In this document: positions 23,631-63,218 of the stretch, in pieces
How positions within the stretch are numbered: position 1 is the stretch's first letter
How the letters are laid out: every line of letters starts with the position of its first letter
Source of the DNA: Candidatus Coatesbacteria bacterium
Lineage (GTDB): Bacteria > RBG-13-66-14 > B26-G2 > JAUVZD01
Reading direction: 5' to 3'
Length of the DNA stretch: 64,000 nucleotides
NCBI GenBank assembly: GCA_030602715.1
Contig: JAUVZD010000008.1
Span: forward strand, 1 to 64,000
Made by a program: the position numbers and the translations under genes
The notes under the pieces: generated by a model
The model's database searches: none
What the model saw: the letters and a program-made list of their open reading frames with translations, nothing else
What the model was told of the DNA's origin: nothing

Positions 23631-23797
23631 CGGGTTTCACCTTGTTACCCAAAAGTTGGTTTTGTGATCACTGTCTAGAAGGGAATATTACCGTATGATT
23701 ATTTTTATTGCAATTCTATCGGGTCGTCGTCTCGCCCTTACCTTCGTCCTCTTCTGAGGAGGTTCCCCGGGGTCTCCTTATTCTTCACTCCCGCTCC

Positions 23798-25762
23798 TCA
23801 TTCCTCGCCCGGTTCGGCTATGGTGTCCAACGGTGGGGGTTGCTCATCGTCCGGTTCAAGGGGCTTGGTCTCCTCGGGTTTCTCTTCAGGGATATATCCG
23901 GTGCCGCCGGGCTCATACCCATCAGTGGATGGGTAGGTGATGAGTTTGCGCAGGGGCGTATTATCATCATCATAGGTCTCATCCTTGAAGCTCTCAAATA
24001 TCCTTGAGTAGCAGACCACCGCGTTGTAGGCGGCATCGGAGCGGGTGAACTTGATATCATCAGCGGTGATGGTATAGCGGTCTTCGGTATATTCCAAGGA
24101 GACCCGTTCAAACTCCACCGCTGCGCCCTTATTGTCCCCCAGTTCAAGGAGGACAGCGGCAAGGTTGAAGTTGTATTTATACGCCTTCTTGTTACCTGGA
24201 TATTCGTGGAGATACTGGCGGTAGCGGTAGGCGGCTTTCAGGAAATATTCCTTGGCAAGCTCCGAATCTCCCTCAGTTTTGGCTTTTAGAGCCATCTGGT
24301 GGTTATATTCGGCGACCTCGTGCAGATTCATCTCCCTCTGTTTGAGGGCGTTGGTCTTCAAGGTGGCGTCCTCCAGGTTCTTGAACCACTCGCTGTCCGG
24401 ACCGTATTCATCCAGGATGCGCTGGCGGGTGGAATCAGCATACTCCAGGTTCTCGTCCCGAGTGTAAGCCTCCACCACCGAGGTCAGCACCTCCGCCGCT
24501 TTCTCGTAATTAGGGTTGTCTGCCAGTAGGTTCTCATATACATCTATAGCTTTTTTTATCTTGTCCTGCTTGTAGAGATAGACATCCCCAATGCGATGGA
24601 TGATGTTTGCGGAGTAGGGCTTGTCGTGGACGGCGAAGTAATCGTCGGCAATTTCTGTAGCTGATGGGGGGGGGTTCTTGGCAAGTTCGGTGAAGCAGAT
24701 GGCGGAGAAGCGTTCAGCCTCATCTGAGAGCTCCACCTGCTGGGCGCTTATAACCCCTTCGCCCTCCTTCTTGAGCTGTTTGTAGAAATCGAGCAGGTTA
24801 CAGAAGGAATCGATTGAATTGTAATAATCCTCTAAGTTGTAGTCGTTTGCCAGGTTGTAGTAGCACCAACCGATTTTGTAGATTGCCTTGTCGTGGAGTT
24901 TCTCGTTTTCAGGGTTATTCTCCACTTTGGTGAAGTATTGTATAGCAGTATCAAACTCAAAGATATCAAAATAATAGTTTCCGATGCGCAGATAGGATTC
25001 TGCGGCGAATCTACTGTCGGGGAAATGGGTAACCAGAACCTTGTAGGTTTCGGCGGCTTCTTTGCGCTCATTCATGCTTTCCAGGCAGATGCCCAAGCCA
25101 TAATAAGCGGTATCTATGTATTCAAAATCTTTATAGAGGAGGACTATCTCCTGATAGGCTTTTATGGTCTTCTCAAACCTGTGTTTGGGTTCCTCACGGT
25201 CAAAGGTGATAGTTGGTGAGAAGGCTGGGGGAGTTTCTATGTTACGGTATTCCTCCTCGGTAATCCCCAGCGATTCCAGGAAAGCTTTGCGCTCCGCCCG
25301 CACTTTGGAGGCATACTCCTCGGTAGCCTTCAGGTATTCCAGATTCCTTTCTATCTGGTTCGCCTCCGATTGCTCGTAGTAAACCTCCCCCAGACGGATG
25401 AGGATATCGGGAGTGTAGGTGCTCTCCGGGTATTTGGTAAGGAATTTCTCGTAGCCCTCAATGGCGTCGGCACGCAGTTTATCCATCTCGGTGACAATGT
25501 TCTGGGCTTTTTTCTCCCGTTCTTCGTGAATCTCTATAATCTTCTCGTTTATCTCCTCAACCTTATCCCGGTATTTCTCCTCCACCGCTTTTTTGACCTC
25601 TTCAATGTCACGTACCTTGTCCAAGGAACCGTTGTTGTCACCACAACCGCTGTACAGCAACAGCCCGGCTACCAGCAGGGATGCCAATATCGGAGTGAGG
25701 TTACTGTTGCCTTTGACCATATTGATTATCTCCTCCACGGTATAATTTCTGTCTAGGAACAT
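23798..25762 (-). CDS. Secreted TPR-repeat protein with a Pro/Glu-rich C-terminal tail
   Basis: Signal peptide. TPR signatures (W/Y-L-G-Y, A-F-A-P-Y spacing) recur throughout. Tail PEEKPEETKPLEPDDEQPPPLD. Confidence 0.6.
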   Translation of the reverse strand: MFLDRNYTVEEIINMVKGNSNLTPILASLLVAGLLLYSGCGDNNGSLDKVRDIEEVKKAVEEKYRDKVEEINEKIIEIHEEREKKAQNIVTEMDKLRADAIEGYEKFLTKYPESTYTPDILIRLGEVYYEQSEANQIERNLEYLKATEEYASKVRAERKAFLESLGITEEEYRNIETPPAFSPTITFDREEPKHRFEKTIKAYQEIVLLYKDFEYIDTAYYGLGICLESMNERKEAAETYKVLVTHFPDSRFAAESYLRIGNYYFDIFEFDTAIQYFTKVENNPENEKLHDKAIYKIGWCYYNLANDYNLEDYYNSIDSFCNLLDFYKQLKKEGEGVISAQQVELSDEAERFSAICFTELAKNPPPSATEIADDYFAVHDKPYSANIIHRIGDVYLYKQDKIKKAIDVYENLLADNPNYEKAAEVLTSVVEAYTRDENLEYADSTRQRILDEYGPDSEWFKNLEDATLKTNALKQREMNLHEVAEYNHQMALKAKTEGDSELAKEYFLKAAYRYRQYLHEYPGNKKAYKYNFNLAAVLLELGDNKGAAVEFERVSLEYTEDRYTITADDIKFTRSDAAYNAVVCYSRIFESFKDETYDDDNTPLRKLITYPSTDGYEPGGTGYIPEEKPEETKPLEPDDEQPPPLDTIAEPGEE

Positions 25763-25856
25763 CTGGTTTACAGAAACTCAAATCGTTCTCAAAATCATCG
25801 TTGTGATATATTTGTACCCCAGTTAGGCTGTTACTACGTAATGAATACATAATAAG

Positions 25857-26222
25857 TTAGGAATTAGTTCGCAGTTCAACTCTATACCGCCAATTAATCA
25901 AGAACAAAATCCCCAACAAGAAAAGTGGTCCTGAGATCATCAAATAAGCCGACCAGTGGAACCTTCCCCAAGCTGTAACCAGATAAAATATCCCAATTGC
26001 CGTGAATAGAATTCCGCCAACCCATTCCCAGCGCCACGAGATGGCAAGTACGACAAGTATTATACCGGTTGGGATAAGATGTATCAGCATGGCTAATATC
26101 GTTTCCCAGAACCCATAACCTGCGCTAAACACGTCTAGTGCAAACAAACTTATAAAAACAGCGAATAGAATACATAAGATCCTTGGGCTCCAGAACAACA
26201 ATCGTTTCACGGATTTTTTCAT
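25857..26222 (-). CDS. Small integral membrane protein (3-4 TM helices)
   Basis: Start at MKKSVKR (26222). The longer track ORF overlaps the upstream TPR gene and has an Arg-rich non-native N-terminus. Confidence 0.45.
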   Translation of the reverse strand: MKKSVKRLLFWSPRILCILFAVFISLFALDVFSAGYGFWETILAMLIHLIPTGIILVVLAISWRWEWVGGILFTAIGIFYLVTAWGRFHWSAYLMISGPLFLLGILFLINWRYRVELRTNS

Positions 26223-26244
26223 ATTCTCACCAACTTTCGGGAGC

Positions 26245-28017
26245 CTACTGGGAACCCTCAGTACCTTCCGATGGTGGTGCTTCTTCCCCGCTCGTTGTTG
26301 CACCCTCAACGCTTTCTGGCTCCTCTGGGGGAGGCGCCTGGGTAGTTTCCTCTTCAACTATCGGAACGAGAACCCCTTCCCGCTTCTTGGAGGGGAAGTA
26401 TTTGCTGGGGGAATATGTAATATTACCGGAGACATCCTTGGTCAGCCCGAATTCCTCCGGGGGCGGAAGGGAGATTACCTCGCTTTCTCCTTCCACTTGT
26501 TCTTTGTATCCCAGGCGATACTGCTCCTCTATAGCCACCTCCCGGGAGACTTTCTCGGAGTAGGTTAGCTTTTCCTGTTCCAGCTCCTCAACTTCCAAAT
26601 TTATCTCTATGCTCAATTCCTCTATCTCTTTCTCCAGTAGTTGTTCCTTTTGGAAGGCGATGGTTGCCATGCCGAACTCGGCGCCGAGCATCAGGTTGCG
26701 ACCAGTGGTGGAACGACCGGAGAACCACATCTCCAAACCCGCCAGCTGGTCTTGCAGGCGGCGCACCTCTTGAATCTCCGATTGAATCTGTTGGTGTATG
26801 TCATCCAGTCCCCGGTCAATAGCTATCTCATCCAGCTCCAGGAAACCAAAATATATCTCCTCAATCTTGTCCATCTCCTCAAAGATGCCCTGATAGACCT
26901 CGCTTACCCGAGGGTCGCCAGCCAATTCTAGTTCCAGATTGTAGTTCTGTTTAATGTCCCGATATTGGTCCATCGCTTTCTCATATTTTCCCAGACCGAG
27001 ATTGCAATGAGCCAAAGACAGCTTGGCTTCGGCGATGAGGTCGCTTGAGCGACGCCGGCTGATAATCTTTTCAAGATAACCTGACGCTTTCTCGTATTTC
27101 TCCTGCTTGATATATACCCAGCCAATGCCCAGAAGGGCGTTGTCGTAGTTCTCAACATCGCTGGAGTCAACCCTTTCATACTCATCTACCGCATCCTCAT
27201 ACCTGCCCACTTCGTAGAACAGGCGCCCCAGGGTTACACGAGCCAAGTTCTTCAAAGCCTTGTCTATCCTCCCGGCAAAACTCATGGAGTCAATTGCCTT
27301 GAGCTGGTGTATTGCGCCTTCAATGTCATCTTGCTGGACCAGACAAAGAGCCATGGAGTACTGGGAGAAACCGTAAAAATCTGAAATCGGTCGCACTTCG
27401 TTGAGTATTCCATAGGCATCTTTGAATTCGCCGATGCTGTAACGGCAGATTCCGCCGATGTAGTTGGAGGCGTCAATGAAGCTCTCCACATCAAATTCCT
27501 TCATCGCTTCCGGGGGGATGGTCAGAGTGCCGGCATGGTAGCGGTTGAGGATTTCCTGATGGTAGAAGATGGCTTCGGTGTAGCGCTCCTGCTTGAACCC
27601 CAACTGCTCCATGCGGTACAACGAGATTGCATAGTAGATGGAATCGGGATAGTTTTTTATCACCCGGGTGAAGGCGTCACGGGAATCGGTGTAGTCGCCG
27701 GCTTTGAAGAAGGACTCGCCCATATAGTAGCTTGCTTCTACCGCTTTGGAGAAGCCGGGATAGAGGAAGACCAGTTCTTTGAACTTGACGCCCGCCTGGC
27801 TATATTTCTTTGACTTGTAGTCCCCATAGGCGTCCTGATAGGTTTTCATTGCCAGGGCTTCCAACTCCTCAAACTTGCGTTCCTGGCGCAGTTCATAGAT
27901 GTATTCTGTGGTCACCTCCAAGTCGCTGGGGAGGTCGTTTTGAGCATAGACCAGACCCATATCTCCTAGGAGTGATGCTACCAGCAGAAGAGAGGAGAAC
28001 CAGCTCATTTTAGACAT
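26245..28017 (-). CDS. Secreted TPR-repeat protein with a Pro/Glu-rich C-terminal tail
   Basis: Signal peptide MSKMSWFSSLLLVASLLG. TPR repeats. Tail EETTQAPPPEEPESVEGATTSGEEAPPSEGTEGSQ. Confidence 0.6.
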   Translation of the reverse strand: MSKMSWFSSLLLVASLLGDMGLVYAQNDLPSDLEVTTEYIYELRQERKFEELEALAMKTYQDAYGDYKSKKYSQAGVKFKELVFLYPGFSKAVEASYYMGESFFKAGDYTDSRDAFTRVIKNYPDSIYYAISLYRMEQLGFKQERYTEAIFYHQEILNRYHAGTLTIPPEAMKEFDVESFIDASNYIGGICRYSIGEFKDAYGILNEVRPISDFYGFSQYSMALCLVQQDDIEGAIHQLKAIDSMSFAGRIDKALKNLARVTLGRLFYEVGRYEDAVDEYERVDSSDVENYDNALLGIGWVYIKQEKYEKASGYLEKIISRRRSSDLIAEAKLSLAHCNLGLGKYEKAMDQYRDIKQNYNLELELAGDPRVSEVYQGIFEEMDKIEEIYFGFLELDEIAIDRGLDDIHQQIQSEIQEVRRLQDQLAGLEMWFSGRSTTGRNLMLGAEFGMATIAFQKEQLLEKEIEELSIEINLEVEELEQEKLTYSEKVSREVAIEEQYRLGYKEQVEGESEVISLPPPEEFGLTKDVSGNITYSPSKYFPSKKREGVLVPIVEEETTQAPPPEEPESVEGATTSGEEAPPSEGTEGSQ

Positions 28018-31894: not shown

Positions 31895-34552
31895 ATGGTA
31901 TCTTCAACCACTAGTAATAAGTATTGTAGTTCTACTGACCTCACTAATGAGGCGAGCGTCGAAGCGTTTTTTGTACTTCGGCTTTTATCCGATTTAGGAT
32001 ATGAAGACGCCGAAATCAAAACTAAGGAAGCTATAGGGACTCTTAGCGTACCGAGGGGCCGGGATAAGGAATTATATAAGCCGGACTTCCTGATGGTGTG
32101 CTACGAAAAGCCCCGTTGGTTAATCGACGCCAAGTCAACCAAAGAACGTATTGAAAACTATACCTATCAATGCGCCGGGTATTCTCTTGAAATTAATAAA
32201 AAATATGAAGACCGACCTCTTCGTTATTATATGCTTACGAACGGACTCTTAACCCGAGTTTATGTTTGGGACCAAGAAGAAGCAGTTTTATCTTTGCGAT
32301 TCAAGGATTTCGTTGATGGTAACTCAAAATATGAAGCGATAAAAAAACTCCTACTCGCCAATAACGCTCGTAATGGGTGGACAATTACGCCAAGTACCCG
32401 TATTAAGGTGATTGCTTTAAAACGTCCGGCAATGGATGTGGTCAAACGTGCTTTCCTGCGTTGTCATAGGATTATTTGGAAAGCAGAGAAAATGAGTCCG
32501 CAAGCGGCTTTTGAGGAATTCGCTAAAATTCTATTTGTAAAATTATGGGAAGACCGACGACTTCGGGATGATTCCGCGTTAATGGCTATGATTAGTAAAG
32601 GCGAACCTTTGCCTATCGATAAAGTAAGGTTTACTAAACATTGGATTAAGGAGCAGGAGGCGAATAATACGAACCCCTTAGATACGTTACTCTTTAAGCA
32701 ATTAGTAGATTCGTTAGAGCGCGAGATTAATTTAAAGAAGAGGAAAAGGATATTTGAGCCGAACGAAAAGCTAAACGTATCACCGGGAACCGTACGCCGC
32801 GTCGTTAAGGAATTAGAAGGTTATTACCTATTCGGTATCGACGAGGATTTAAACGGGAGGATGTTTGAGGCTTTTCTCACCGCGACTATGCGTGGCAAAG
32901 AATTAGGGCAATATTTCACCCCGCGAAGCATTGTAAAATTGATGACGAAACTGGCGAAGCTCAAAGCACAACCGGGGGCAAACAATATTGAGAATGTTAT
33001 CGATGCTTGTTGTGGAACGGGAGGGTTTTTAATAGAAGCACTAACCGAAATGCGGCGCCAATTGTGGGATAACCAGTCGCTCTCAAATACTCAAAGGGAA
33101 GAACTACTTGATGTAGTTTCCAATAAAGCTATACTTGGAATCGATGTGGGCCGTGGTCCAGTAATTGCGCGTATAGCGCGGTTAAATATGTATCTTCACG
33201 GTGATGGTGGTAACAAGGTATATATGACAGACGCGCTTAAAGACCCACCGGAACCATCCCCAGCCGATTCGATTGAAGTGAAGGGAGAGGTCGAAGAACT
33301 ACGCGGCCTTTTAGCTAACGGTTTAAGATTTGATGCGGCGTTAACGAATCCACCGTTTTCGATGGATTACTCTTCTGACGACCCAGAAGAAAAGGTAATT
33401 CTTGATACATATGATTTGACTACCTATGGGGGGAAACGCAAGAATTCCTTGAGGTCGTCCGTTCTTTTTATAGAACGCTATTACGATTTACTGCGTCCGG
33501 GTGGTCGTCTTCTTACTGTTATCGATGACAGTATCCTTGCCGGTAAACCCTTTCCGTTTGTTCGTGATTTTATTAGGGAACGATTTATTATAAAGGCAAT
33601 AATTAGCTTGCACGGGGATGCTTTTCGTCGTTCGGGATCGAGGGCGAAAACATCTATTCTTTATTTAATAAAGAAAAACGACCCTTCTGAAGTACAACCA
33701 AGTTGTTTCGTTTATGAAACCCAATATGTTGGCCGTGATGACGTTCCTACTAAAACGAGGATTAGCAATGCCGAGAAAGCGAGGAGTCTCGCTGGCAATG
33801 AAATAAACGAGATAACTACATCTTTTGATTCTTTTCTTCGGGGCGAAGCTGGGCCTTGGTTGGTTCCCGCCTCTTCTTTAACCGAAAGACTCGATGCTAA
33901 ACACCTTCGTCCCTGGTCTGTATCGGAACTCGAAAAGGATTGGGAAGCTCACGGTATACCTTCAGATATTATTGGGAATCTATTTGACCCAATTGAAGAA
34001 GAAGTATCACTCGAACCAGATACGAGATATACGTTTCTTCGTATTACTTATGAAGGACGACCCGAACGCGGTGATACAGCTTTAGGTAAAGAAGTGTCTT
34101 ACCAAAAGATGTATAGGGCGAGGGTTGGAGATATTGTTATCAGTACTATTAATGCTGTGCATAAGGCGATTTGCGTAATGCCAGAAGTATTGGATGACCT
34201 TTTAATTTCACCGGCATTTATCGTACTACGGCTAAAGGATTCTAAAGTCGGCGATATAGACCCAGCGTACGTATGGTCGGTTCTTCGTACCCCTGCAATC
34301 GTGGCAGAATGGTTGTCTCATACGACCGGATTCGGGCGACATTATGTTGATTGGAATATTATCCGTGACCAACGTATTCCGCTACTTCTTGCGGATAAAC
34401 AGCTGGCTATCGGGAATATGATTCGTGAATTATTCCGATACGAGCAAGAAATATCTGTGAAGAAAGACGCGGCGGAGGATATGTTAGCTGGTCTTGGTTT
34501 AAATGATAGTCGCGCCAAAGACCGCCTTGCCAAAGCTAAACCTCCGCAATAA
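31895..34552 (+). CDS. Single-polypeptide restriction-modification enzyme (Type IIG-like). It fuses an N-terminal HSDR_N-type PD-(D/E)xK nuclease, an HsdM-like gamma-class N6-adenine methyltransferase, and a C-terminal HsdS-like target-recognition domain.
   Basis: PD-(D/E)xK: KPDFLMV...WLIDAKSTKE...QCAGYS...YYMLTNG. MTase motif I: VIDACCGTGGFLIEA. Motif IV: FDAALTNPPFS. GQYFTPRSIV as in HsdM. C-terminal ~250 aa are TRD-like. Strong AAGGAGG SD. The gene is ~43% GC against ~58% in the flanks. Confidence 0.7.
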   Translation: MVSSTTSNKYCSSTDLTNEASVEAFFVLRLLSDLGYEDAEIKTKEAIGTLSVPRGRDKELYKPDFLMVCYEKPRWLIDAKSTKERIENYTYQCAGYSLEINKKYEDRPLRYYMLTNGLLTRVYVWDQEEAVLSLRFKDFVDGNSKYEAIKKLLLANNARNGWTITPSTRIKVIALKRPAMDVVKRAFLRCHRIIWKAEKMSPQAAFEEFAKILFVKLWEDRRLRDDSALMAMISKGEPLPIDKVRFTKHWIKEQEANNTNPLDTLLFKQLVDSLEREINLKKRKRIFEPNEKLNVSPGTVRRVVKELEGYYLFGIDEDLNGRMFEAFLTATMRGKELGQYFTPRSIVKLMTKLAKLKAQPGANNIENVIDACCGTGGFLIEALTEMRRQLWDNQSLSNTQREELLDVVSNKAILGIDVGRGPVIARIARLNMYLHGDGGNKVYMTDALKDPPEPSPADSIEVKGEVEELRGLLANGLRFDAALTNPPFSMDYSSDDPEEKVILDTYDLTTYGGKRKNSLRSSVLFIERYYDLLRPGGRLLTVIDDSILAGKPFPFVRDFIRERFIIKAIISLHGDAFRRSGSRAKTSILYLIKKNDPSEVQPSCFVYETQYVGRDDVPTKTRISNAEKARSLAGNEINEITTSFDSFLRGEAGPWLVPASSLTERLDAKHLRPWSVSELEKDWEAHGIPSDIIGNLFDPIEEEVSLEPDTRYTFLRITYEGRPERGDTALGKEVSYQKMYRARVGDIVISTINAVHKAICVMPEVLDDLLISPAFIVLRLKDSKVGDIDPAYVWSVLRTPAIVAEWLSHTTGFGRHYVDWNIIRDQRIPLLLADKQLAIGNMIRELFRYEQEISVKKDAAEDMLAGLGLNDSRAKDRLAKAKPPQ

Positions 34553-35658: not shown

Positions 35659-36387
35659 ATGCCAGGTTACCGTTGGATTATCGGTCTTTTTGCGGTGGTT
35701 TTATCGCTTGTCCTTTTTGCGGAAGGGGCTTTCGCCAAACGTAAGGAGGAGGAACCCCCGAAGGACTCCAGAGTAATTGCCCACATACAATTTGGGGTAA
35801 ACTATGGACTTTCGTCGCCGGATATGGTGGATACTATTAATGACACCGCAATAAATACGCTGAACTCTGAGGACCGCTTGGGCGATTTCGGCTTGGGGTT
35901 TAGCTTCGGCTTGGATATCCTATTCAACGCGAAGGGACCGTTATGGCTCGGTGGGGGGCTGGGAATCAATACCGCCAAAACCCACCAGAAATTCAAGTAT
36001 TATGACGCTATTGGTAACTTCTACAATGAGTATTATGGGATAAGCCTTACCGTTGGGTCGCTTGACGGCTTGGCTATGTTTCGTTTCAACACCAGGGGGA
36101 GTTTCTCGCCATATCTTTTCGCAGGTGGCGGTATCTCCCTTACAGTGATGAATTTTGATAACTATATGGTAAATATCTATGGGGGTGAGCACTTCCATCG
36201 GGGTCAAGCCACTAAATACTCCCCTGTCCTGCGGGCTGGTGGAGGTTTTGGTGTTCCCTTCTTCAACCTGGGTCAGTTCTTCACCCAGGTGAGCTACACC
36301 TATCCCGTTGGGGAGTTTGAGGTTTTAGGTTGGGGAGTGAAGCAAGACGCCTGGGCGGTATCTTTCGGATTGGATAGAGCCTTCTGA
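35659..36387 (+). CDS. Outer-membrane beta-barrel protein (OmpA-like 8-strand / OMP_b-brl family)
   Basis: Signal peptide ending AFA. Alternating hydrophobic/aromatic strands with Gly-rich turns. C-terminal ...AWAVSFGLDRAF. Confidence 0.55.
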   Translation: MPGYRWIIGLFAVVLSLVLFAEGAFAKRKEEEPPKDSRVIAHIQFGVNYGLSSPDMVDTINDTAINTLNSEDRLGDFGLGFSFGLDILFNAKGPLWLGGGLGINTAKTHQKFKYYDAIGNFYNEYYGISLTVGSLDGLAMFRFNTRGSFSPYLFAGGGISLTVMNFDNYMVNIYGGEHFHRGQATKYSPVLRAGGGFGVPFFNLGQFFTQVSYTYPVGEFEVLGWGVKQDAWAVSFGLDRAF

Positions 36388-36518: not shown

Positions 36519-37811
36519 TTGAGAAGGATTGTAATCCTCGCTTGGGTAGCATTCGCCTTGCTACTTGCTTCGTGTTCCAGTAACGACGATTCTCCCATAG
36601 GATTTGACTGGGTGGGTTGGGACTCCCCGGTATATACCGTAATTCTATACCCCGATGCATCCTGGCAGGATACTTACTTTGACTGTTATGTCAACACCGG
36701 ACGTTCTCTGCGCCTGCTGGTGGGTCGCTTTGACCACTATCTATATCGCTCGTTGATTATGTTCCGTCCCCAGGATTTGGAATTCGGTTCCGCCAACGAC
36801 ATCACCTGCGCCAAGATCAGCTTCGCCATGGAGAGAGAGGTGGGGTTGCTCAACGATGCGGTTTATAACCAGGGGAGTCTGGAGATAGAGGTCGCCCCGC
36901 TCTATGTGGATTGGCTGGAGGACGCCGCCAGTTGGTATCACGCCGACCATTACACCCCCTGGGATGGGGGGATATTCGGTCCGCCGCAGGGAATCGCTCT
37001 TGCCGGCGAAGCCACCGAGGAGATTACCTATGTAGATATTGAGATTACCGACATGTGCCGGGATTGGGTTGCCGACCCTAACTCCAATCATGGGGTCATC
37101 GTCATGGCTCGGGATGAGAGCCGGGAGGTGGTCAAGGAATTTTATTCCCTGGATATCCTCACCCGTGAGGGAGTTCCCAAGTTGATAATAGAGTATCAGG
37201 AGGATGGGGAGAAGAAGAAGGTCAGTATTCCCCCGGCAATAGATTGTTTCATCACCACCTCGGATGAGCGCTTTTTTGACGACGATATACCCGGATACAA
37301 CGAGGAAATTATGGTCGGTGGTTTCAACGGTTATTCCTACCGGGCGATGATGTATTTTGATTTGAGCCAGGAAACCACTTTCATCCCCAGGGACGCCACC
37401 ATCGTCCTGGCGGAGCTCAAGCTCTATTATAAACCCGGCTCCAAAGCGGATGAGTCACTCATCCGAGCCTATGTGCTGGATCAGGCCTTTGATGAGTCTA
37501 TGAACCGGGGGACTTTGGCTTCTCTGCAATTCAATACCTCAACCTCCTACGGAGAGATGGATATTGAAGGCGCTCCTGAGGGATTTCTGGGCATCTTCAT
37601 AAATCAGATGGTTCAGGGCTGGATAAGCGGTTCCTTAAATAACTACGGGCTGCTGTTGATGGCGGATGGGGAATATCTGGATTCCACCTGTCACATTGAA
37701 TTCTCAAGCACCGACAATTCCAACCCATCTTACTGGCCTTATCTGTTGGTCAAGTTCACCCTGCCCCCCGGTTATCCCCCCGATTGGATGATGGCTAATG
37801 ACTCTCTCTAG
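36519..37811 (+). CDS. Secreted lipoprotein with two tandem beta-sandwich (carbohydrate-binding/DNRLRE-like) modules
   Basis: Lipobox LLLASC. The repeated pattern NHGVIVMARDESRE / NNYGLLLMADGEYLDS ... YLLVKF occurs twice. Confidence 0.5.
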   Translation: MRRIVILAWVAFALLLASCSSNDDSPIGFDWVGWDSPVYTVILYPDASWQDTYFDCYVNTGRSLRLLVGRFDHYLYRSLIMFRPQDLEFGSANDITCAKISFAMEREVGLLNDAVYNQGSLEIEVAPLYVDWLEDAASWYHADHYTPWDGGIFGPPQGIALAGEATEEITYVDIEITDMCRDWVADPNSNHGVIVMARDESREVVKEFYSLDILTREGVPKLIIEYQEDGEKKKVSIPPAIDCFITTSDERFFDDDIPGYNEEIMVGGFNGYSYRAMMYFDLSQETTFIPRDATIVLAELKLYYKPGSKADESLIRAYVLDQAFDESMNRGTLASLQFNTSTSYGEMDIEGAPEGFLGIFINQMVQGWISGSLNNYGLLLMADGEYLDSTCHIEFSSTDNSNPSYWPYLLVKFTLPPGYPPDWMMANDSL

Positions 37812-39027
37812 GGCGATTGCTCTGAAGCTTGTGGGATTAGCCCTGGTAGCAATTTTAGCTCTGTCGCTCTCCACCGCATCTGCCAACACCTTGCTCAACA
37901 TAGACCAGATGGGTGAGCCTTTTCTCGCCTATGAAGCCCGAGCCATAGCAATGGGCAACGCTTGCATCGCCTTATATGACGGTGCCAATACCTCCTTGCT
38001 CAACCCGGCATGCAGTGCTCAGCTATCCACCACTATGTTCAACGCCACCTATCTCCGTTATCAGACCAGATACTCCCTCTATGGACAGGAGAGCGCAGTG
38101 GTGGAACATAATCTGCCCAATATCTCCTTCACCGCCTTCATTCCTAAAATAGAGTTACCGGTAACCGTGGGACACCGCACCTATTATGATTGGGGCATAA
38201 AGGTGGCCCAGCCCCTGATAGTGGAGGGGGAGGAGGTGGGGGAGGAGTGGTATATCGGTAAGGGCAGTCTTAACTGCTTCTCGGTCGCCAGTGCGCGCAG
38301 TCTTTTGCCCTGGATGAGCCTGGGCTTGCGTCTGGACTACTATTTCGGCGCTCCGAAGGAGGCTTGGATCAAGGATTTTTCAAGTGATTATTATACCGAT
38401 GTGAGGGATGTTCTTGAACACCGGATGCACGGGGCAAGCTTCACCGTCGGCGCGGTGGGCAGTATGGGTATGGGGCTGGATGTGGGCTTCTTCTATCAGC
38501 ACAAAGCCAAGCTGGATGTGGAGGATACCGTAACCAGCAACTTCGGGGTGGTAGCCGAAGATTCTTATACCCTTACCTATCCAGCGAGGATGGGGTTCGG
38601 CATTGCTTATCATTCCTTCCCCTGGCTCACCGCCGCCATAGATGTAATCCACACCCGCTGGAGTGGTTTTGAGAGTGGGAACCAGGAGTTTGATTTTCAG
38701 AGCACCACCGAATTCCACGGGGGGGTGGAGATAGTTCCCAGCCAGAACCCCAAGTCGTTCAAGCTACTGCGACTGCCCTATCGGGCGGGGTTTTATTATA
38801 TTCCCTGGTATGGTGCTGACCCCGGCGGGGGTCGGTATAGCGAGGTCGGTTTTACCTTCGGAATGGGCTATCTTTTTGGGCAGAATGAGAACTCACGGGT
38901 GGATGTAGCCTTTGAGTTCGGTCGGCGAGGCGGAGGTGACCTGGACCTGCAAGAGGATATATTCAGGCTTTACTTCTCGGTCAGTGCCCTGGAGAAGTGG
39001 CTGGGTAAGTTCACCAAGGAAGATTGA
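37798..39027 (+). CDS. Outer-membrane beta-barrel of the PorV/FadL-like superfamily
   Basis: Signal peptide. N-terminal conserved segment EARAIAMGNACIALYDGANTSLLNPA resembles the GARAxGMGxAxxAxxDDxSAxxWNPAGL motif of PorV/FadL-type barrels. C-terminal aromatic residue. 14-nt overlap with the upstream lipoprotein gene. Confidence 0.5.
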   Translation: MTLSRAIALKLVGLALVAILALSLSTASANTLLNIDQMGEPFLAYEARAIAMGNACIALYDGANTSLLNPACSAQLSTTMFNATYLRYQTRYSLYGQESAVVEHNLPNISFTAFIPKIELPVTVGHRTYYDWGIKVAQPLIVEGEEVGEEWYIGKGSLNCFSVASARSLLPWMSLGLRLDYYFGAPKEAWIKDFSSDYYTDVRDVLEHRMHGASFTVGAVGSMGMGLDVGFFYQHKAKLDVEDTVTSNFGVVAEDSYTLTYPARMGFGIAYHSFPWLTAAIDVIHTRWSGFESGNQEFDFQSTTEFHGGVEIVPSQNPKSFKLLRLPYRAGFYYIPWYGADPGGGRYSEVGFTFGMGYLFGQNENSRVDVAFEFGRRGGGDLDLQEDIFRLYFSVSALEKWLGKFTKED

Positions 39028-39160: not shown

Positions 39161-39352
39161 ATGGCAGCGAAACCCAAGATTGACCCCGATCTTTGCACCG
39201 GCTGTGTCATCTGTGTGGATACCTGTTCCACCGGTTCATTGGAGATGAATGAGGATGAGACATTAGCGGTTCTTGCCCATCCTGACGATTGCGACTCGTG
39301 CGGCGACTGCGAGGAAGCCTGTCCGGCGGAAGCAATTGAGATGGTTGAGTAG
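39161..39352 (+). CDS. 2x[4Fe-4S] ferredoxin
   Basis: CTGCVICVDTC and CDSCGDCEEACP cluster motifs. 63 aa. Confidence 0.8.
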   Translation: MAAKPKIDPDLCTGCVICVDTCSTGSLEMNEDETLAVLAHPDDCDSCGDCEEACPAEAIEMVE

Positions 39353-39605: not shown

Positions 39606-40184
39606 ATGAGATTGTTAAGTTTTCCCCTCATTATAGTTATTGCATTTGTCGCTTCGCCCGCCTTTGGTGATGTGGTGGAGCTTTACTGGGATGACGGCAT
39701 CCCCTATGTGCCCCACTTTCATAATCAGGAGGGGGACGGCTGGGGAGTGCGCTTTGAGCCCACCGGTCCGGGTCTGATTTTGCAGGCTAAGATATATGTT
39801 GGCAATCCCCCACCCGAAGATCCGCCCGTCTTTCAGGGTTGTAATATTTCTCTCTACTACGATGACGGGGGCTTCCCCACCGATGAGCCTTTCTGGGGGC
39901 CGGTCTTTTTTGAGACCGAGGCGGGATGGAACTACTTCACCATAAGCACCTATTGTAACGGGAATAATTTCTATGTAGCCTGGATCCAGGTGGGGTATGG
40001 TCCCGACTGCGACGCGGTCTATGCCGATACCTATGACGACAACCACCGCAGTCTCAGGTATCTCAACGGAATATGGGACTACTATGACTTCGGCGGTGAC
40101 CTGTTGATCCGCTGTTTCTACGATTATCCACCCCCTGCGGTTCAGCCCATATCCCTGGGCAAGGTTAAAGCCCTCTTTAACTGA
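39606..40184 (+). CDS. Secreted Gly/Tyr/Trp/Asp-rich protein of unknown function ending in the tail ...YDYPPPAVQPISLGKVKALFN
   Basis: Signal peptide LIIVIAFVASPAFG. Candidate promoter TGGACA-17-TATATT at 39539-39567. Confidence 0.55.
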   Translation: MRLLSFPLIIVIAFVASPAFGDVVELYWDDGIPYVPHFHNQEGDGWGVRFEPTGPGLILQAKIYVGNPPPEDPPVFQGCNISLYYDDGGFPTDEPFWGPVFFETEAGWNYFTISTYCNGNNFYVAWIQVGYGPDCDAVYADTYDDNHRSLRYLNGIWDYYDFGGDLLIRCFYDYPPPAVQPISLGKVKALFN

Positions 40185-40327
40185 TATACATTCATTAAAA
40201 AAGTAGAAGGCAGGGGCGGAAACCCCTGCCCTTTCAGTATTTAAGTGTTACCTGCATTGATGTCTCTGATGGGAACTGAGAGGATGGACAGTGCATTTCC
40301 GGCTTCCCTGATTGATACATTTATATG

Positions 40328-52141: not shown

Positions 52142-54625
52142 TTGGCTGATAAGGATAAAGGGAAGCCCGGCAGAGAGGAGAGGGAAGAGGACGCCCTACA
52201 GATTGCCGGGGAGGAGGGCACGGAAAAGAAACGGAGACCGTGGTTCACTAGAAGGAGATGGGTGGTCATCTCCGCCTGCGCCCTCGGTGGTATCCTCCTT
52301 CTGCTTATCCTGGGAATGGCAATTCTACTTCTGGTCAACACGCCGGAGAAGCTCAAGTCCCGTCTGCTCCCCAAGCTGGAGGAGATGGTGGACGGGGAGG
52401 TCACCTTTGAGGACATCCACATGTCGCTTTTTCCCCGCCAGGAGGTGGTTATGGAGGGCTTTGCTTTGACCCCGGCTGACGGTAGCGCCCCTGCGGTAGC
52501 CGAAGAGTTGCAGTTGGGCTTGCATCTCCTCCCCCTCATTGTAGGCGACCTCTCCATCTCCCGCATAACCCTTCTCTCCGCCGACCTGCCCCTCTACCGG
52601 GAGGGGGGTTCCCTCTCCCTGGCTCACTGCTTCCCCAAAGAGGGGAGCCTGACCCGGATGAGCTACAAAGGGAGAATAGAGCTTGATGGGAGTCGGATAA
52701 GGCTTCTGGACCAGAGCGGGTGGTCCTTCACCTGGGAGGGGAGCGATTTTTTCTGCGACCTCAACCTCAACCCCAACGGTGACTCCGTATTTAAGGTGAA
52801 GCTCTCCTGGGAACGGTTGGTAATCTCCGATACCAAGACCAAAGAACCCTCTCCCTTCGCCGGCTTTTCCGGCAGTATTAAACTGGTCGGTAAACATAAG
52901 CGCAAAGAGGGACATATGGAGTTTACTCAGGTTGACCTGAACCTAGCCGGAGCCGAGCTTTCGGCAAGAGGTGAGGTGCGGGACCTGGGCACCGATCTGG
53001 TAACCTTGGATTTTGAGGTGAGCGGAAGCGATGTAGATGCCGGTTCCCTCTTCGCCCTCTTCAATCCCCGGCGGTATGAAGTGTTGGGGCGGGTGGAACT
53101 TGTCGGCAGGGCTGATGTGGATTTGCGGGTTAGCGCCGAGCTTCCCTCGGGGGAGGGCTTTGAAAACATAAATCTGGCGGGGGTGGTTAAATTGTACGAC
53201 GCCCAAATCACCTCACGGTCGGATTCCGGCGGTCGGGGTTCGGCGGAGGACCTTGAGGCTAAGCTGGTCTTTGAGGAGGGGAAGGTGTCGGTAAAGGAGC
53301 TCTACTGCCGGATGGCAGGTGAAGAGTGCGTGGGCTATCTGGAGCTCTCTTGGGGTGGCGAGCCCAGAGTGGTGGGAAAATTCTGGGGGGAGTTTGACGC
53401 CGGCTTGCTATCCTCACTTGCCGGTGGGAAACCCGGCTGGCAGGTCAGCGGCAAAGCCTGCGGGGAGATATACCTGGATGGAGGCGTGGAGGGAGCAGGC
53501 GATATTTCCTACACCGGACATCTGGCGGAAATGTCCGGTCAGTTTTATCTTTCGCCCTTCTCTGCGCCCATAGTGGTCAAAGGAGGTCGTCTGGAGATGG
53601 CTGGATATGAGATGCGCCTCATGGATTGTTCCCTCACTTTGGGCGAATCTCCCATCACCCTGAACGGCACCCTGAAGGGCTTTGAGTTCCCCCGCATAAG
53701 CTACGCCCTCTATTCCCCCAGCCTGGACCTGGATGCGGTGCTCAAGGAAGATCTCTCCCCGCCGTCTGGCGATGTTGAGGCTCTGGAGGAGGGCAGGGTG
53801 ACCCTGGAGGGTGAATATACAATTGACAAACTTCTTTTGTGGAATATCCCGGTGGAGGGCTTCAAGGCAACCACCACATACAATGGCGGGATACTGCAAT
53901 TAAATAGTATGGAGTTCATCGCCTACGGCGGTCCGGTGCGGGGCAAGGCAACCATCCAGATACGGGAGCGGGCATATACCTTCCAGCTGGAGGGGGATTA
54001 TGTGGGCATCAGCAATTGGCTGGATGAGTTTACCGAGAACTACAAAGAGGTGCTTGCGGGAGGCAGGCTTTCTGTGGACATGTTCTTCTCCGCCCGAGGC
54101 ACCTCCGCCGACCCGGTCAAGGAGAGCATCACCGGCCAGGGTGTTTTGATATTTGAACGGGGGACGGTGACCAATCTGTCCATACTGGACCAGCTGGCAG
54201 AGTGGAGTGGGGTGGGGATATTGAACGGCTTCTTCATAGACCGCCTGAAGGGCAGATTCCGTCTGGGAGAGGGGGGTATAACCATCCGGGAGGGCGCACT
54301 TTCCGGTCCGGAAATATATGAGGCGATGATTGACGGATATCTGGGCTTTGACGGGGAGGTTGCCTTCTCCGTCATCCTGCGCCTCTCTCCACAGATGACC
54401 CGGAAGTATTATTCCACTGCGGTTTCGCTTGCCCTGGACAGCAAAGGAAGAGGTGGGATGGCATTCCTGGTGAGCGGAACTTTGGACGAGCCCCGCTTCA
54501 AGCTGGATGCAGAGGCTACCGCAAGGCTGGCTACGGAGTCGGTGGGAGAGGTGGGCGCAGAGGGGCTTTCCCGCTTTGAGAAGGACGAGGAGCTGATGGG
54601 CTTGGATAGCGAGAGTATTTTTTGA
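52142..54625 (+). CDS. AsmA-family protein (AsmA/TamB-like envelope protein) with an N-terminal TM anchor
   Basis: TTG start behind GAGGAGGG. TM anchor WVVISACALGGILLLLILGMAILLLV. Long beta-rich periplasmic region ending with an AsmA-like C-terminus. Confidence 0.65.
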   Translation: MADKDKGKPGREEREEDALQIAGEEGTEKKRRPWFTRRRWVVISACALGGILLLLILGMAILLLVNTPEKLKSRLLPKLEEMVDGEVTFEDIHMSLFPRQEVVMEGFALTPADGSAPAVAEELQLGLHLLPLIVGDLSISRITLLSADLPLYREGGSLSLAHCFPKEGSLTRMSYKGRIELDGSRIRLLDQSGWSFTWEGSDFFCDLNLNPNGDSVFKVKLSWERLVISDTKTKEPSPFAGFSGSIKLVGKHKRKEGHMEFTQVDLNLAGAELSARGEVRDLGTDLVTLDFEVSGSDVDAGSLFALFNPRRYEVLGRVELVGRADVDLRVSAELPSGEGFENINLAGVVKLYDAQITSRSDSGGRGSAEDLEAKLVFEEGKVSVKELYCRMAGEECVGYLELSWGGEPRVVGKFWGEFDAGLLSSLAGGKPGWQVSGKACGEIYLDGGVEGAGDISYTGHLAEMSGQFYLSPFSAPIVVKGGRLEMAGYEMRLMDCSLTLGESPITLNGTLKGFEFPRISYALYSPSLDLDAVLKEDLSPPSGDVEALEEGRVTLEGEYTIDKLLLWNIPVEGFKATTTYNGGILQLNSMEFIAYGGPVRGKATIQIRERAYTFQLEGDYVGISNWLDEFTENYKEVLAGGRLSVDMFFSARGTSADPVKESITGQGVLIFERGTVTNLSILDQLAEWSGVGILNGFFIDRLKGRFRLGEGGITIREGALSGPEIYEAMIDGYLGFDGEVAFSVILRLSPQMTRKYYSTAVSLALDSKGRGGMAFLVSGTLDEPRFKLDAEATARLATESVGEVGAEGLSRFEKDEELMGLDSESIF

Positions 54626-54768: not shown

Positions 54769-55536
54769 ATGAAAGCAGTAATTGCATTTCTGGTTGTGTC
54801 TGTGTCTACTATGGGAGTGTGTTGGGCGGAGGATTTACTGATATTGACCGATGATAGTGGGACTTACAGTTATCCCGACGATATCGGCGACCTGGTCGAT
54901 TCCATGTCTCCAACTCCCAGCTATTTGGTGCAGACCAACAACGGTGACAGTGGAGTATATTCTTCGGATGAGGATTTTTTATCGGATTTTGGTGCGGTCT
55001 TTTGGTATGCCTCCGGGGCTGGCGGCTATGGTCGAACTACCTCCACAGCTGAGTTGAACGCCTGTCAGTCTTATATTGACTCTGGAGGGCATATGCTCGT
55101 CACCGGATATGACCTCATAGGAAGCCCCGATGACCCCAATATGGCTCAAATCATCAACTCCGCCACCTACGGCGACGGTCCCTTCACCACCGGAATGGAA
55201 ATAGTTGAAGAGGGTCATTTCATAGTGGATGGACCCTATGGGACCTTTACGGGGTCATTCTATGTATCTCAAACCGACCACGATCAACTAACGCCGGGAA
55301 CCGATGCGGTGGAGGTCATCACCATTACTGGCTCCGCTAACTCCAAGTGCATCTGCACCGATTATTCTGAGTCTTACGGTGGTACGGTAGTCGGTTGGGT
55401 GGGGAACCGTGGTGACGATGACTTCATAAGCTTCTCCGATTTAGGGGATATGTTCAAGAACTGGCTTTCCTATTTGACCTATCCCACCTCTGTCCAGCCC
55501 ACCAGCTTGGGGCAGATAAAAGCCCTCTACCAGTAA
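54769..55536 (+). CDS. Secreted protein of unknown function ending in the tail ...LTYPTSVQPTSLGQIKALYQ
   Basis: ATG at 54769 behind AAGGGGG. Signal peptide AVIAFLVVSVSTMGVCWA. The body is unrelated to the 39606 protein but the C-terminal 20 aa are shared. Confidence 0.55.
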   Translation: MKAVIAFLVVSVSTMGVCWAEDLLILTDDSGTYSYPDDIGDLVDSMSPTPSYLVQTNNGDSGVYSSDEDFLSDFGAVFWYASGAGGYGRTTSTAELNACQSYIDSGGHMLVTGYDLIGSPDDPNMAQIINSATYGDGPFTTGMEIVEEGHFIVDGPYGTFTGSFYVSQTDHDQLTPGTDAVEVITITGSANSKCICTDYSESYGGTVVGWVGNRGDDDFISFSDLGDMFKNWLSYLTYPTSVQPTSLGQIKALYQ

Positions 55537-62177: not shown

Positions 62178-63218
62178 ATGACAATATTTTCCGGCTATAG
62201 GGTAGCATTTCGTGTGGATGGCGGGGAGGAGATTGGCTGGAGTTCCTTCAATCGTTGCTGTGCTCTGGCTTACGAGCTGGAGAACTATTTTGGGTGCAAG
62301 GTGGGTTTCTTCTCTTCAATTGAGGGTGAGCCGCCCTGGGGAGAACCACGATGGTCGCTGGTGACTCCACCTGAGGATATGAGTGTCTGGCAGGAGGGTC
62401 GGTGGCTTTCCTGGGAGACCGAGGTGGGAGGATACGACGGGATTGTCGTTGATGTCCGCAGGGATTTGGACTCGCTGTGTAAGCCTTTGATAAAGAGCGG
62501 ATTTGTGGTGGTGGTTATTGATGAGGATTACCGGGGCATAGTCCCCTCACATCTGGTGGTAAATGCTTCCATAGTTGAGGATCCTCAAGGCTATCATCCA
62601 TTCAATAGAGAACAGTTGTTCCTACTCGGTCATCGCTACATCATTTTGCGCCCCAAGTTCGGTGGGGAGAGGGACAGAATTGTCAAAGAAAGAGCGGAAC
62701 ATCTAGTGGTCTCGCCCGGTAGGGGTTATCCTCCTGCGGTCTGGGGGAGGGCTATACGCCAGGCGGTGGAGAAGGGCGGTATGAAGCGCATCTCTATATT
62801 TACTGAGCGGTCTCATTCCCTGGAGGATTTTGAGGTAGCAGAATTTTCATCGGATATTGATTTTCACTCCGGGCTGGAGGACCCCTCAAGGGTCATGGCT
62901 GGCGGTGATATCGCTCTGTGCGGGGGTGGGACTACTTTGTTTGAGTATATCTCCCTGGGGGTTCCCGCGGTGGCGATAACCGCCATACCTGGCGAGATTA
63001 AGGAAGCGGAGGCTTTAGCCTCTCAGGGAGCATGTGTTGCCCTTACCTATTCATTTGCGCCGGAGCGGGTGGGGATAGCGGTAAAGACGCTCGCCGACCG
63101 AATTGATGTTCGTCGGTTGATGAGTGCGTATGGTGCGGCGCTGATTGACGGGGGTGGGCGGGAGAGGGTGGCGCTGACTGTAGTAGAAATTTTGAGGAGG
63201 GAAAAGGGCTCTGGTTAG
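62178..63218 (+). CDS. PseG/SpsG-like UDP-sugar hydrolase/transferase (GT28 C-terminal-like fold)
   Basis: N-terminus VAFRVDGGEEIGWSSFNRCCALAYEL and C-terminus GDIALCGGGTTLFEYISLGVPAVAI resemble PseG / spore-coat SpsG family patterns. Confidence 0.45.
   Translation: MTIFSGYRVAFRVDGGEEIGWSSFNRCCALAYELENYFGCKVGFFSSIEGEPPWGEPRWSLVTPPEDMSVWQEGRWLSWETEVGGYDGIVVDVRRDLDSLCKPLIKSGFVVVVIDEDYRGIVPSHLVVNASIVEDPQGYHPFNREQLFLLGHRYIILRPKFGGERDRIVKERAEHLVVSPGRGYPPAVWGRAIRQAVEKGGMKRISIFTERSHSLEDFEVAEFSSDIDFHSGLEDPSRVMAGGDIALCGGGTTLFEYISLGVPAVAITAIPGEIKEAEALASQGACVALTYSFAPERVGIAVKTLADRIDVRRLMSAYGAALIDGGGRERVALTVVEILRREKGSG

Follow-up and report, generated by a model that had tools for sequence, protein, structure and literature searches.

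A short C-terminal tag shared by unrelated secreted proteins of sediment bacteria

[quoted passage not shown] The PEP-CTERM signal recognized by exosortases (TIGR02595; Haft et al. 2006, PMC1569441) is a short tag, present many times per genome on diverse proteins with N-terminal signal peptides in sediment organisms, which consists of a near-invariant Pro-Glu-Pro motif, a hydrophobic transmembrane (TM) helix of about 14 residues and a basic cluster of about 5 residues. LPXTG, GlyGly-CTERM, PGF-CTERM and other sortase-type tags likewise place a signature motif before a TM helix and basic residues. The T9SS export signal (type A, TIGR04183/FlgD_ig-like, and type B) is instead a folded ß-sandwich domain (PMC4804311). 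Such domains span roughly 70–100 residues and are found on Sec-exported, otherwise unrelated proteins, including propeller and CBM-type surface proteins, of FCB-affiliated bacteria. Outer membrane proteins (OMPs) carry a C-terminal ß-signal recognized by BamA/BamD, with alternating hydrophobic residues, a conserved upstream Gly and an aromatic residue, usually Phe, at the very end, whereas periplasmic enzymes such as E. coli PBP5 and PBP6 use longer C-terminal amphipathic helices, poorly conserved in sequence, to tether a soluble protein to a membrane surface. More distant analogies are provided by dockerins, which are ~70-residue calcium-binding domains read by cohesins, and by the eukaryotic PTS1 tripeptide read by the TPR receptor PEX5, in which one common C-terminal element on many unrelated proteins is recognized by a single scaffold or receptor; neither has a sequence relationship to the tag described here.

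The element described here was first noticed in a 64,000-nucleotide stretch of a Candidatus Coatesbacteria bacterium (contig JAUVZD010000008.1, positions 1 to 64,000, assembly GCA_030602715.1; hereafter, the window), where an initial annotation made from sequence alone reported that two otherwise unrelated secreted proteins share a C-terminal tail. This observation is confirmed. ORF A (39606–40184, forward strand, 192 amino acids) ends in FYDYPPPAVQPISLGKVKALFN and ORF B (54769–55536, forward strand, 255 amino acids) ends in LTYPTSVQPTSLGQIKALYQ; the start given originally for the first tail (40114) is 2 nt out of frame with the peptide, which begins at 40116, but this is immaterial. Both proteins start with Sec-type signal peptides, MRLLSFPLIIVIAFVASPAFG|DV in ORF A (39606–39668, forward strand) and MKAVIAFLVVSVSTMGVCWA|ED in ORF B (54769–54828, forward strand), with the cleavage sites inferred by eye. 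The conserved tag itself, numbered from −15 to −1, corresponds to AVQPISLGKVKALFN in ORF A (40137–40181, forward strand, followed by a stop codon at 40182–40184) and to SVQPTSLGQIKALYQ in ORF B (55489–55533, forward strand, followed by a stop codon at 55534–55536).

The similarity between the two tails is beyond chance. A BLASTP comparison of ORF A against ORF B found only the C-terminus (residues 176–192 against 239–255, 10/17 identical, E=8e-5), and a degenerate DNA pattern for the tail plus stop codon hit the window exactly twice, while none of 100 shuffles gave even one match. A six-frame regular-expression search revealed no third copy in the window. The two 45-nt tails share only 30/45 bases and use different codon families (e.g., Ser TCC against AGC), indicating that they are not a recent DNA duplication. 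The remainder of each protein is less informative: neither had a Pfam or NCBIfam hit, and both AF2 models, built from alignments of 2–3 sequences, were poor (pLDDT 33 and 47), with the N-terminal half of ORF B modelled as α/ß at moderate confidence only and the last 8 residues of both proteins drawn as a helix. A Foldseek search of the ORF B model against the PDB gave nothing at E≤1e-3, only generic flavodoxin-like or ThuA-like folds. The tail is nevertheless retained in homologues of both proteins. For ORF A, these are the orthologues P0002 (47% identical, in the syntenic locus L001) and P0010, together with distant tagged homologues in four of the other fetched loci (L060, L143, L058 and L129). 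For ORF B, they are P0004 and P0005 (50–54% identical, in tandem in locus L002).

We next asked how widely the tail is distributed, since the initial annotation had named confinement to these two proteins as an outcome that would refute it. Protein-level searches were of limited use: a 49-column tail alignment returned nothing, and a tail profile searched against 1.84e9 representative sequences gave only 8 hits at E≤1e-3, 3 of them low-complexity repeats, as HMMER has little power for a 15-residue motif. In contrast, degenerate DNA scans of 596 Gb of species-representative genomes found the tail 29 times against about 1 expected (2^-40 per position, by our calculation). All 29 are true ORF ends and lie, several per genome, in MAGs titled Zixiibacteriota, Coatesbacteria or simply 'bacterium'. 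A stop-free version of the pattern matched 129 times in metagenomes, and all 129 matches are followed by exactly one codon and then a stop, which we calculate a random in-frame match would do about 4.5% of the time. In 932 kb of DNA fetched around such matches, 269 of 957 ORFs end in [AG]-V-x-P-[ATS]-S-[LF]-G-[RK]-[VI]-K-A-L-[FY]-[RK]. This corresponds to 28% of the ORFs, although these loci were picked because they contain the tag.

The tagged ORFs fall into 22 sequence-similarity clusters, whose bodies include NHL (E=4.6e-39), PD40 (1.2e-19), DUF6923 and BNR-like propellers, cupredoxin (6.9e-11), CBM96, CBM_4_9, ß-helix and Omp28-like families. Of the 231 tagged ORFs that are complete at the 5' end, 194 (84%) have an SPI-type signal peptide and essentially none has a lipobox. 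In the window itself, the DNRLRE/CBM96 protein (36519–37811) is an untagged lipoprotein, while its homologue P0011 is a tagged non-lipoprotein. The tag behaves as a module: conservation starts abruptly at −15, linkers vary in length, and untagged NHL paralogues end right after the last blade, just before the point where the tag would begin. Selection acts on the peptide rather than on the DNA, as all synonymous codons are used at the conserved positions, including both Ser codon families, and all three stop codons occur.

Alignment of the tails also corrected the consensus proposed originally, since the upstream Y-P is not part of the conserved unit and the Q at −13 is a flavour of this lineage, being E, A or V elsewhere. 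V-Q-P occurs on three unrelated bodies of the window lineage (ORF A, ORF B and P0011), whereas Q is rare elsewhere (10 of 209 tails). Other lineage flavours are V-E-N and V-E-S, and W/F variants of the tag are seen in loci L016 and L020. The aromatic residue is at −2 in 207 of 209 unique tails, and the last residue is R or K in 74% of tails and otherwise polar. In the 95 tails that were not selected by a search pattern, conservation has period 2, with even positions carrying 3.58 bits and odd positions 2.59 bits (p=0.013). Tails of unrelated proteins from the same genome are more alike at variable positions than tails from different genomes (0.535 against 0.488, reached by 2 of 300 permutations), suggesting a common reader, although the effect is small and part of the sample was ascertained with patterns that fix several positions.

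The tag does not match any described family among the resources searched. NCBIfam scans of 9 tagged proteins and a synthetic linker plus tail at E≤10, and of ORF A and ORF B at E≤1, listed no match to the tail; no Pfam model covers it; and a PDB sequence search with the tail profile found only a chance partial match at an internal position (9nsd_A, E=0.23). No searched paper holds the strings, and every carrier whose public name was checked is annotated 'hypothetical'. To look for a cognate reader we performed all-vs-all clustering of the 957 ORFs and a Pfam scan of 147 non-redundant neighbours of tagged genes, which showed no family in more than 3 of these neighbours or in more than 3 loci. 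TPR proteins recur, but they are heterogeneous, and a FadL/BamG-like barrel is specific to the ORF A locus. No exosortase (EpsH/Xrt) gene appears among the neighbours.

Taken together, we favour the idea, to which we assign a probability of roughly 0.55, that the tail is a modular C-terminal targeting or anchoring signal of about 15 residues, [AG]-V-x-P-[ATS]-S-[LF]-G-[RK]-[VI]-K-A-L-[FY]-[RK/polar]-COOH, that lacks a TM helix and would be read by a shared factor of the cell envelope. The first step of this model, export to the periplasm by Sec and signal peptidase I, is shown from the sequences, whereas the later ones are inferred. The exposed peptide would be bound by one shared envelope component encoded elsewhere in the genome, probably in a largely extended form with one face (V, P, S, G, V/I, A, F/Y) buried against the partner, as the period-2 conservation suggests. 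By analogy with other sorting tags, binding would then either hold the protein at the outer membrane or cell surface, or hand it to an outer-membrane translocation or attachment step. The destination (outer membrane, surface or periplasmic retention) and the fate of the tag, cleaved or retained, rest purely on inference, and a cupredoxin carrier (loci L011 and L124) would be at home in the periplasm, so the data do not require secretion across the outer membrane. In this view the tag would do for non-lipoproteins what a lipobox does for their lipoprotein homologues, and ORF A and ORF B would be two ordinary clients.

A bolder and more tentative version, which the evidence allows but which we consider somewhat less likely than not, is that Zixibacteria, Coatesbacteria and related uncultured lineages possess a previously unrecognized sorting system, in which a dedicated outer-membrane or periplasmic machine reads this peptide (V-x-P-x-S-L-G-R-V-K-A-L-F-K) on Sec-exported non-lipoproteins and places dozens of propeller, CBM and redox proteins per genome on the cell surface. 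This would be a new class of sorting signal alongside LPXTG, PEP-CTERM and the T9SS CTD. A TM-less signal of 15 residues would also be mechanistically distinct from all sortase-type tags; we found no TM segment in the tail and no NCBIfam hit to any of them.

The interpretation offered by the initial annotation is thus partly supported. Its first candidate, a short sorting or anchoring tag, is what the evidence favours, the confinement to two proteins that it had named as refuting does not hold, given the 269 tagged ORFs in 22 clusters, and it was right that the tail has no TM helix or basic cluster and is unlike the T9SS CTD at 1–141. Its second candidate, the ß-signal of a small OMP family, is rejected because carriers match soluble domain families, even though the folds of ORF A and ORF B themselves are unresolved, and because the aromatic residue is penultimate in 129/129 pattern matches whereas the one clear OMP next door ends in a terminal F (GLDRAF). 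The conserved V-x-P-x-S-x-G extension is additionally absent from ß-signals. The third, a cargo tag for the nearby PorV-like barrel, is unsupported: the best match of that barrel is BamG, a BAM subunit (E=2.7e-37, against only 5.7e-5 for PorV), and among the 148 other loci it recurs only in L001.

Among the alternatives, the one that survives best, although unlikely, is a self-sufficient membrane anchor, in which the last 9–10 residues (S-L-G-R-V-K-A-L-F-K) form a short cationic amphipathic helix that sticks directly to an anionic leaflet or to LPS, as do the C-terminal helices of PBP5/PBP6, without a dedicated reader. The low-confidence AF2 helices, the hydrophobic residues at −9, −6, −3 and −2, the basic residues at −7, −5 and −1, and the absence of a reader gene near the tagged genes are consistent with this possibility. 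However, the near-invariant V(−14), P(−12), S(−10), G(−8) and A(−4) have no obvious role in lipid binding, a 9-residue helix with about four hydrophobic side chains would be a weak anchor, and generic membrane-binding helices are usually not conserved at this level across phylum-level lineages. The helices of PBP5/PBP6 are also not a multi-family, multi-copy tag. The hydrophobic moment at 100 degrees was 0.386 against a mean of 0.37 in column shuffles, and at 170 degrees 0.576 against 0.363 (p about 0.13), values that do not separate helix from strand.

Comparably improbable is a BAM-directed signal that mimics an OMP ß-signal and docks by ß-augmentation on BamA or an FCB-type BAM subunit, so that soluble passengers would be delivered to or tethered at the BAM complex. 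The alternating V-K-A-L-F pattern with an aromatic residue near the end and the period-2 conservation fit this reading, ORF A lies two genes downstream of a BamG-like barrel and a lipoprotein, syntenic in L001, and BamG and BamH are conserved in FCB phyla (PMC12611786). The soluble nature of the carriers, the polar or basic residue that follows the aromatic one, and the failure of the barrel to recur next to tagged genes elsewhere argue against it.

A miniature T9SS signal, that is, a drastically shortened CTD, is doubtful. T9SS-type CTD proteins exist in the same genomes, as the fragment at 1–141 of the window hits FlgD_ig (E=4e-5) and CHU_C and loci L016 and L020 carry similar proteins; both kinds of C-terminus end in hydrophobic residues plus a basic residue (KKMVLVR against KALF[KR]), and Zixiibacteriota sit in the FCB group in NCBI taxonomy. 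Yet the tag is far too short for a T9SS CTD, no T9SS model hits the tail of any of about 20 tagged proteins (the one PorE-family hit is to a PD40 propeller body), and the two signals coexist in one genome as clearly distinct classes.

A C-terminal degron or PDZ ligand for a periplasmic protease of the Prc/CtpA/DegP class is still less probable. The motif is strictly C-terminal, exposed and present on exported proteins, but PDZ and tail-specific proteases typically read a hydrophobic last residue, fifteen conserved residues are far more than such ligands need, and it is hard to see why dozens of structural and binding proteins per genome would carry a constitutive degron. A degenerate PEP-CTERM signal that has lost its TM helix was considered seriously and rejected. 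V-E-P-x-S-L resembles the start of PEP-CTERM, both tags are strictly C-terminal, occur in multiple copies per genome on signal-peptide proteins (features shared with all sorting tags), have a conserved x-P motif at the start and have dispersed client genes, and the best NCBIfam body match of the NHL carriers is the PEP-CTERM protein ScyF. However, the first Pro is replaced by V (92%), and position −13 is E in 60% of all tails but A>E>V in the 95 tails not selected by a pattern, so that 'VEP' is partly an ascertainment artefact. Only 10 residues follow the Pro, and they include R/K at −7, −5 and −1, with no 14-residue hydrophobic stretch and no basic cluster after it. TIGR02595 was not among the NCBIfam matches, no PEP-CTERM-like tail occurs in 930 kb of loci, and without a TM anchor the membrane-embedded exosortase mechanism would have no substrate geometry. 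Chance similarity or a recent 3' duplication or gene conversion, suggested only by the presence of just two copies in the window, is refuted by the shuffles, the divergent codons, the orthologues that keep the tail and the hundreds of further carriers.

Covalent attachment through the conserved Lys at −5 or a terminal Lys, as in Lpp, was also rejected, because K at −5 is replaced by R in about 5% of tails (about 10% in the unbiased subset) and the last residue is K in only about a quarter. The tag marks a large share of the exported proteins near every locus examined, in widespread but uncultured sediment phyla. A profile for it would immediately annotate hundreds of proteins, and phylogenetic profiling with it would turn the search for the cognate machinery into a direct computational experiment. 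It would also define a client list that includes redox proteins, among them the cupredoxins, and tagged proteins embedded in a multihaem-cytochrome gene cluster.

ORF A (39606-40184, 192 aa) and ORF B (54769-55536, 255 aa) end in ...YPPPAVQPISLGKVKALFN and ...YPTSVQPTSLGQIKALYQ, respectively, each followed directly by a stop codon, and both begin with typical Sec signal peptides. The initial annotation, which had described a shared C-terminal tail on these two proteins, was therefore correct in its observation. A BLASTP comparison of the two proteins detected a single significant segment, the last 17 residues (10/17 identical, E=8e-5), and a degenerate DNA pattern for the tail plus a stop codon matched the window twice and none of 100 shuffles, while no third copy exists in the window in any frame. 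The two 45-nt tails share 30/45 bases and differ in codon family (for example, Ser TCC against AGC), indicating that this is not a recent 3' duplication. Neither protein hits any Pfam or NCBIfam model. A G+C-rich hairpin (GGCAGGGG-CGGAAA-CCCCTGCC) that looks like a terminator lies about 20 nt after the ORF A stop codon (approx. 40205-40230, plus strand).

We next examined whether the tail is retained in related proteins (retrieved proteins and fetched loci are designated P and L, respectively). Orthologues of ORF A keep the tail: P0002, which is 47% identical and syntenic in locus L001, ends in AVQPTSLGWLKSLLK, and P0010 ends in GVELNSLGQVKALFN. Likewise, two homologues of ORF B (P0004 and P0005, 50-54% identical and arranged in tandem in locus L002) end in SVESASLGEIKAAFK and GIESASLGEIKAAFK. 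A profile of the tails searched against 1.84 billion representatives, an approach that has little power here, returned two more carriers, with the match at the exact C-terminus in both cases: P0011, a signal-peptide CBM96 protein with an unrelated body that ends in SVQPTSLGNIKAMFK, and P0012, a fragment.

To determine how widespread the tail is, we scanned species-representative genomes (596 Gb, a collection that does not include the window's own genome) with a DNA pattern for V-[EQ]-x-x-S-L-G-x-[IVL]-K-A-x-[FY]-x-stop, which has about 40 bits of information and for which we calculate about 1 chance match on both strands. The scan gave 29 matches in 27 loci, all of which are ends of ORFs and lie in MAGs titled Candidatus Zixiibacteriota (3 MAGs), Candidatus Coatesbacteria (2, including the 2.35-Mb chromosome CP070633.1) or simply 'bacterium' (taxon labels are those of the record titles), with several genomes carrying more than one. 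A second, stop-free pattern (V-E-P-x-S-L-G-x-[VI]-K-A-L-[FY]) gave 129 matches in 117 stretches of metagenome contigs, and all 129 are followed by exactly one more codon and then a stop, which by our calculation a random in-frame match would do about 4.5% of the time. The motif is therefore obligatorily C-terminal, with the aromatic residue always penultimate. A looser regular expression applied to all fetched DNA (932 kb) identified 269 tagged ORFs out of 957, often in tandem paralogue arrays; one 908-kb contig has at least 9, and two 8-kb pieces of CP070633.1 have 8.

Alignment of 209 unique tails shows that conservation rises abruptly at position -15, which is A or G, and is followed by V at -14 (92%), a variable residue at -13, P at -12 (91%), A, T or S at -11, S at -10 (95%), L at -9 (78%, also F, V and W), G at -8 (100%), R at -7 (64%, also K), V or I at -6, K at -5 (95%, also R), A at -4 (95%), L at -3 (88%), F (61%) or Y (38%) at -2, and R or K at -1 (74%, also E, N, Q and H). 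The sequence upstream is family-specific, with linkers that range from a few residues to long Ser/Gly/Pro-rich stretches. The same picture holds in the 95 tails that match neither search pattern, and are thus not biased by them, except at -13, which is A>E>V in this subset (the PEP-like 'VEP' appearance is in part an artefact of our own ascertainment). In these 95 tails conservation alternates with period 2, even positions carrying 3.58 bits and odd positions 2.59 bits (one-sided Mann-Whitney p=0.013), which fits an extended peptide with one face against a partner. AF2, in contrast, draws a short terminal helix, although at very low confidence in poor predictions, and the hydrophobic moment does not discriminate between the two conformations. 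At the DNA level every conserved residue uses all its synonymous codons, including both Ser families, and all three stops occur, showing that selection is on the peptide.

Divergent versions of the tag, with W or F in place of L and T in place of S (...TEPVTWGAIKSLYR, ...TEPTTFGSIKALFR and ...VENLTFGSIKAIFQ), occur in loci L020 (4070-5212, 7376-7999 and 2-940) and L016 (1794-2324), in MAGs that also encode T9SS-CTD proteins. One of these carriers (L020:7376-7999) appears to be a lipoprotein. Such F/W variants, for example TWGAIKSLYR in L020, hint that the family is broader than the search patterns could capture.

The tagged ORFs fall into 22 BLAST clusters. Pfam and NCBIfam identify their bodies as NHL propellers (E=4.6e-39), PD40/TolB-like propellers (1.2e-19), DUF6923 and BNR-like repeats, cupredoxin/amicyanin-like proteins (6.9e-11), CBM96 and CBM_4_9, NTTRR-F1, parallel beta-helix and an Omp28-like family, in addition to several families that, like ORF A and ORF B, have no hit. 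Of 231 5'-complete carriers, whose median length is 270 aa, 194 have an SPI-type signal peptide and practically none has a lipobox. NHL paralogues without the tag stop immediately after the last blade (...RVQYFKKRD and stop), so the tag is a detachable module. The DNRLRE/CBM96 protein of the window (36519-37811) is an untagged lipoprotein (LLAS|C), whereas its homologue P0011 is a tagged non-lipoprotein, the 'choice of anchor' pattern typical of sorting signals. Some clients may work in an envelope redox module, as suggested by a gene cluster conserved in Zixibacteria-type contigs (loci L013, L017, L025, L054, L055, L065 and L150; for example L013:357-7896), in which the gene order is TPR protein, FMN-binding/4Fe-4S membrane protein, tagged NHL propeller, multihaem c-type cytochrome (at least 6 CxxCH), ferredoxin-like membrane protein, 2Fe-2S/4Fe-4S protein, tagged 290-aa protein, DedA and PseG-like. 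A PseG-like gene also lies 7 kb from ORF B in the window (62178-63218).

We then looked for signs of a common reader. Among protein pairs with unrelated bodies, tails from the same genome are more alike at variable positions than tails from different genomes (0.535 against 0.488, with 2 of 300 label permutations reaching this value), although the effect is modest and part of the sample was selected by pattern. The window lineage has V-Q-P and a non-Arg residue at -7 on three unrelated bodies (ORF A, ORF B and P0011), with Q being rare elsewhere (10/209), while Coatesbacteria B26_G2 has V-E-N and the L002 organism has V-E-S-A. Concerted, lineage-specific change across unrelated proteins is what co-evolution with one recognition partner predicts.

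Overall, the analysis establishes that the carriers bear Sec-type signal peptides (and so are presumably exported) and are, with practically no exception among those scored, non-lipoproteins, and that the tag is modular, strictly terminal, under peptide-level selection, present in multiple copies, lineage-restricted and endowed with lineage-specific flavours across unrelated proteins. What follows is inferred from sequence alone: after export, the free C-terminal peptide would be bound, probably in a largely extended form, by one shared envelope factor, which would either retain the protein at the outer membrane or cell surface or pass it to a translocation or attachment step. We assign a probability of roughly 0.55 to this general mechanism, in which the reader, the final compartment and any cleavage of the tag remain hypothetical. 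No machinery gene is enriched next to tagged genes, as is also usual for PEP-CTERM and T9SS clients. Three consecutive large TPR proteins in the window (21147-28017, minus strand; 827, 654 and 590 aa) with YbgF/BamD/PorW/PrsT-like TPR hits are speculative candidates for a tag reader, as TPR domains often bind C-terminal peptides.

The interpretation offered by the initial annotation was thus partly supported, since a short sorting or anchoring tag is the reading that we favor, whereas, of its two other candidates, a beta-signal of a small OMP family is rejected and a cargo tag for the nearby PorV-like barrel is unsupported. Among the alternatives, a self-sufficient cationic amphipathic anchor survives best but appears unlikely. 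A BAM-directed mimic of the OMP beta-signal is slightly less probable still: the carriers are soluble domains and the aromatic residue is never terminal, whereas the adjacent 242-aa OMP ends in ...GLDRAF. A cargo tag for the neighboring barrel is not supported either, as this FadL-family protein (37798-39027) matches BamG over its full length (E=2.7e-37, 129 bits, below the 250-bit family cutoff, covering 23-393 of 397 profile positions) far better than PorV (5.7e-5), and recurs only in the orthologous locus L001. BamG is a BAM subunit in Flavobacterium; in F. johnsoniae it anchors the carbohydrate-binding-fold surface lipoprotein BamH to the BAM complex, and both are conserved in FCB phyla (PMC12611786). 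The overlapping gene pair formed by the DNRLRE/CBM96-type lipoprotein and the barrel (36519-39027, plus strand, with 35659-36387 and 39161-39352) may be the equivalent BAM 'canopy' module, and the block OMP, lipoprotein, barrel, ferredoxin and ORF A is syntenic in L001.

A miniature T9SS signal is very unlikely, given that the T9SS CTD is a folded beta-sandwich domain (PMC4804311) and that the 15-residue tag hits no CTD model. Bona fide CTD proteins moreover coexist with the tag in L016 and L020 and in the window itself, where the 3' end of a gene at 1-141 (plus strand), whose product ends in ...GLYIYRMSAGNFQSAKKMVLVR, matches the FlgD_ig (E=4e-5) and CHU_C T9SS signal domains. A degron or PDZ ligand is improbable, and a degenerate PEP-CTERM signal even more so: the TM helix and basic cluster that define PEP-CTERM, LPXTG and similar sortase-type tags (PMC1569441) are absent, no PEP-CTERM domain model hits, and no such tails occur in the loci. 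Chance or duplication can essentially be dismissed.

C-terminal sorting tags on exported proteins are well known as a general kind. This particular tag, however, fails the defining features of every described family tested, and is absent from Pfam, NCBIfam 20.0, the PDB and the searchable literature, in which no paper contains the tail strings; GenBank and IMG call the proteins 'hypothetical'. A substantial possibility, which we hold only tentatively, remains that it marks a distinct, undescribed sorting system.

With regard to the remaining genes of the window, an AsmA-family protein (52142-54625, plus strand, 827 aa) lies immediately upstream of, and co-directional with, ORF B (143-nt gap), an arrangement also seen in L004 and L152, which are the same organism. 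Finally, an 885-aa protein (31895-34552, plus strand) matches the MADS defence-system DNA methyltransferase MAD2 (E=8e-53, below cutoff).
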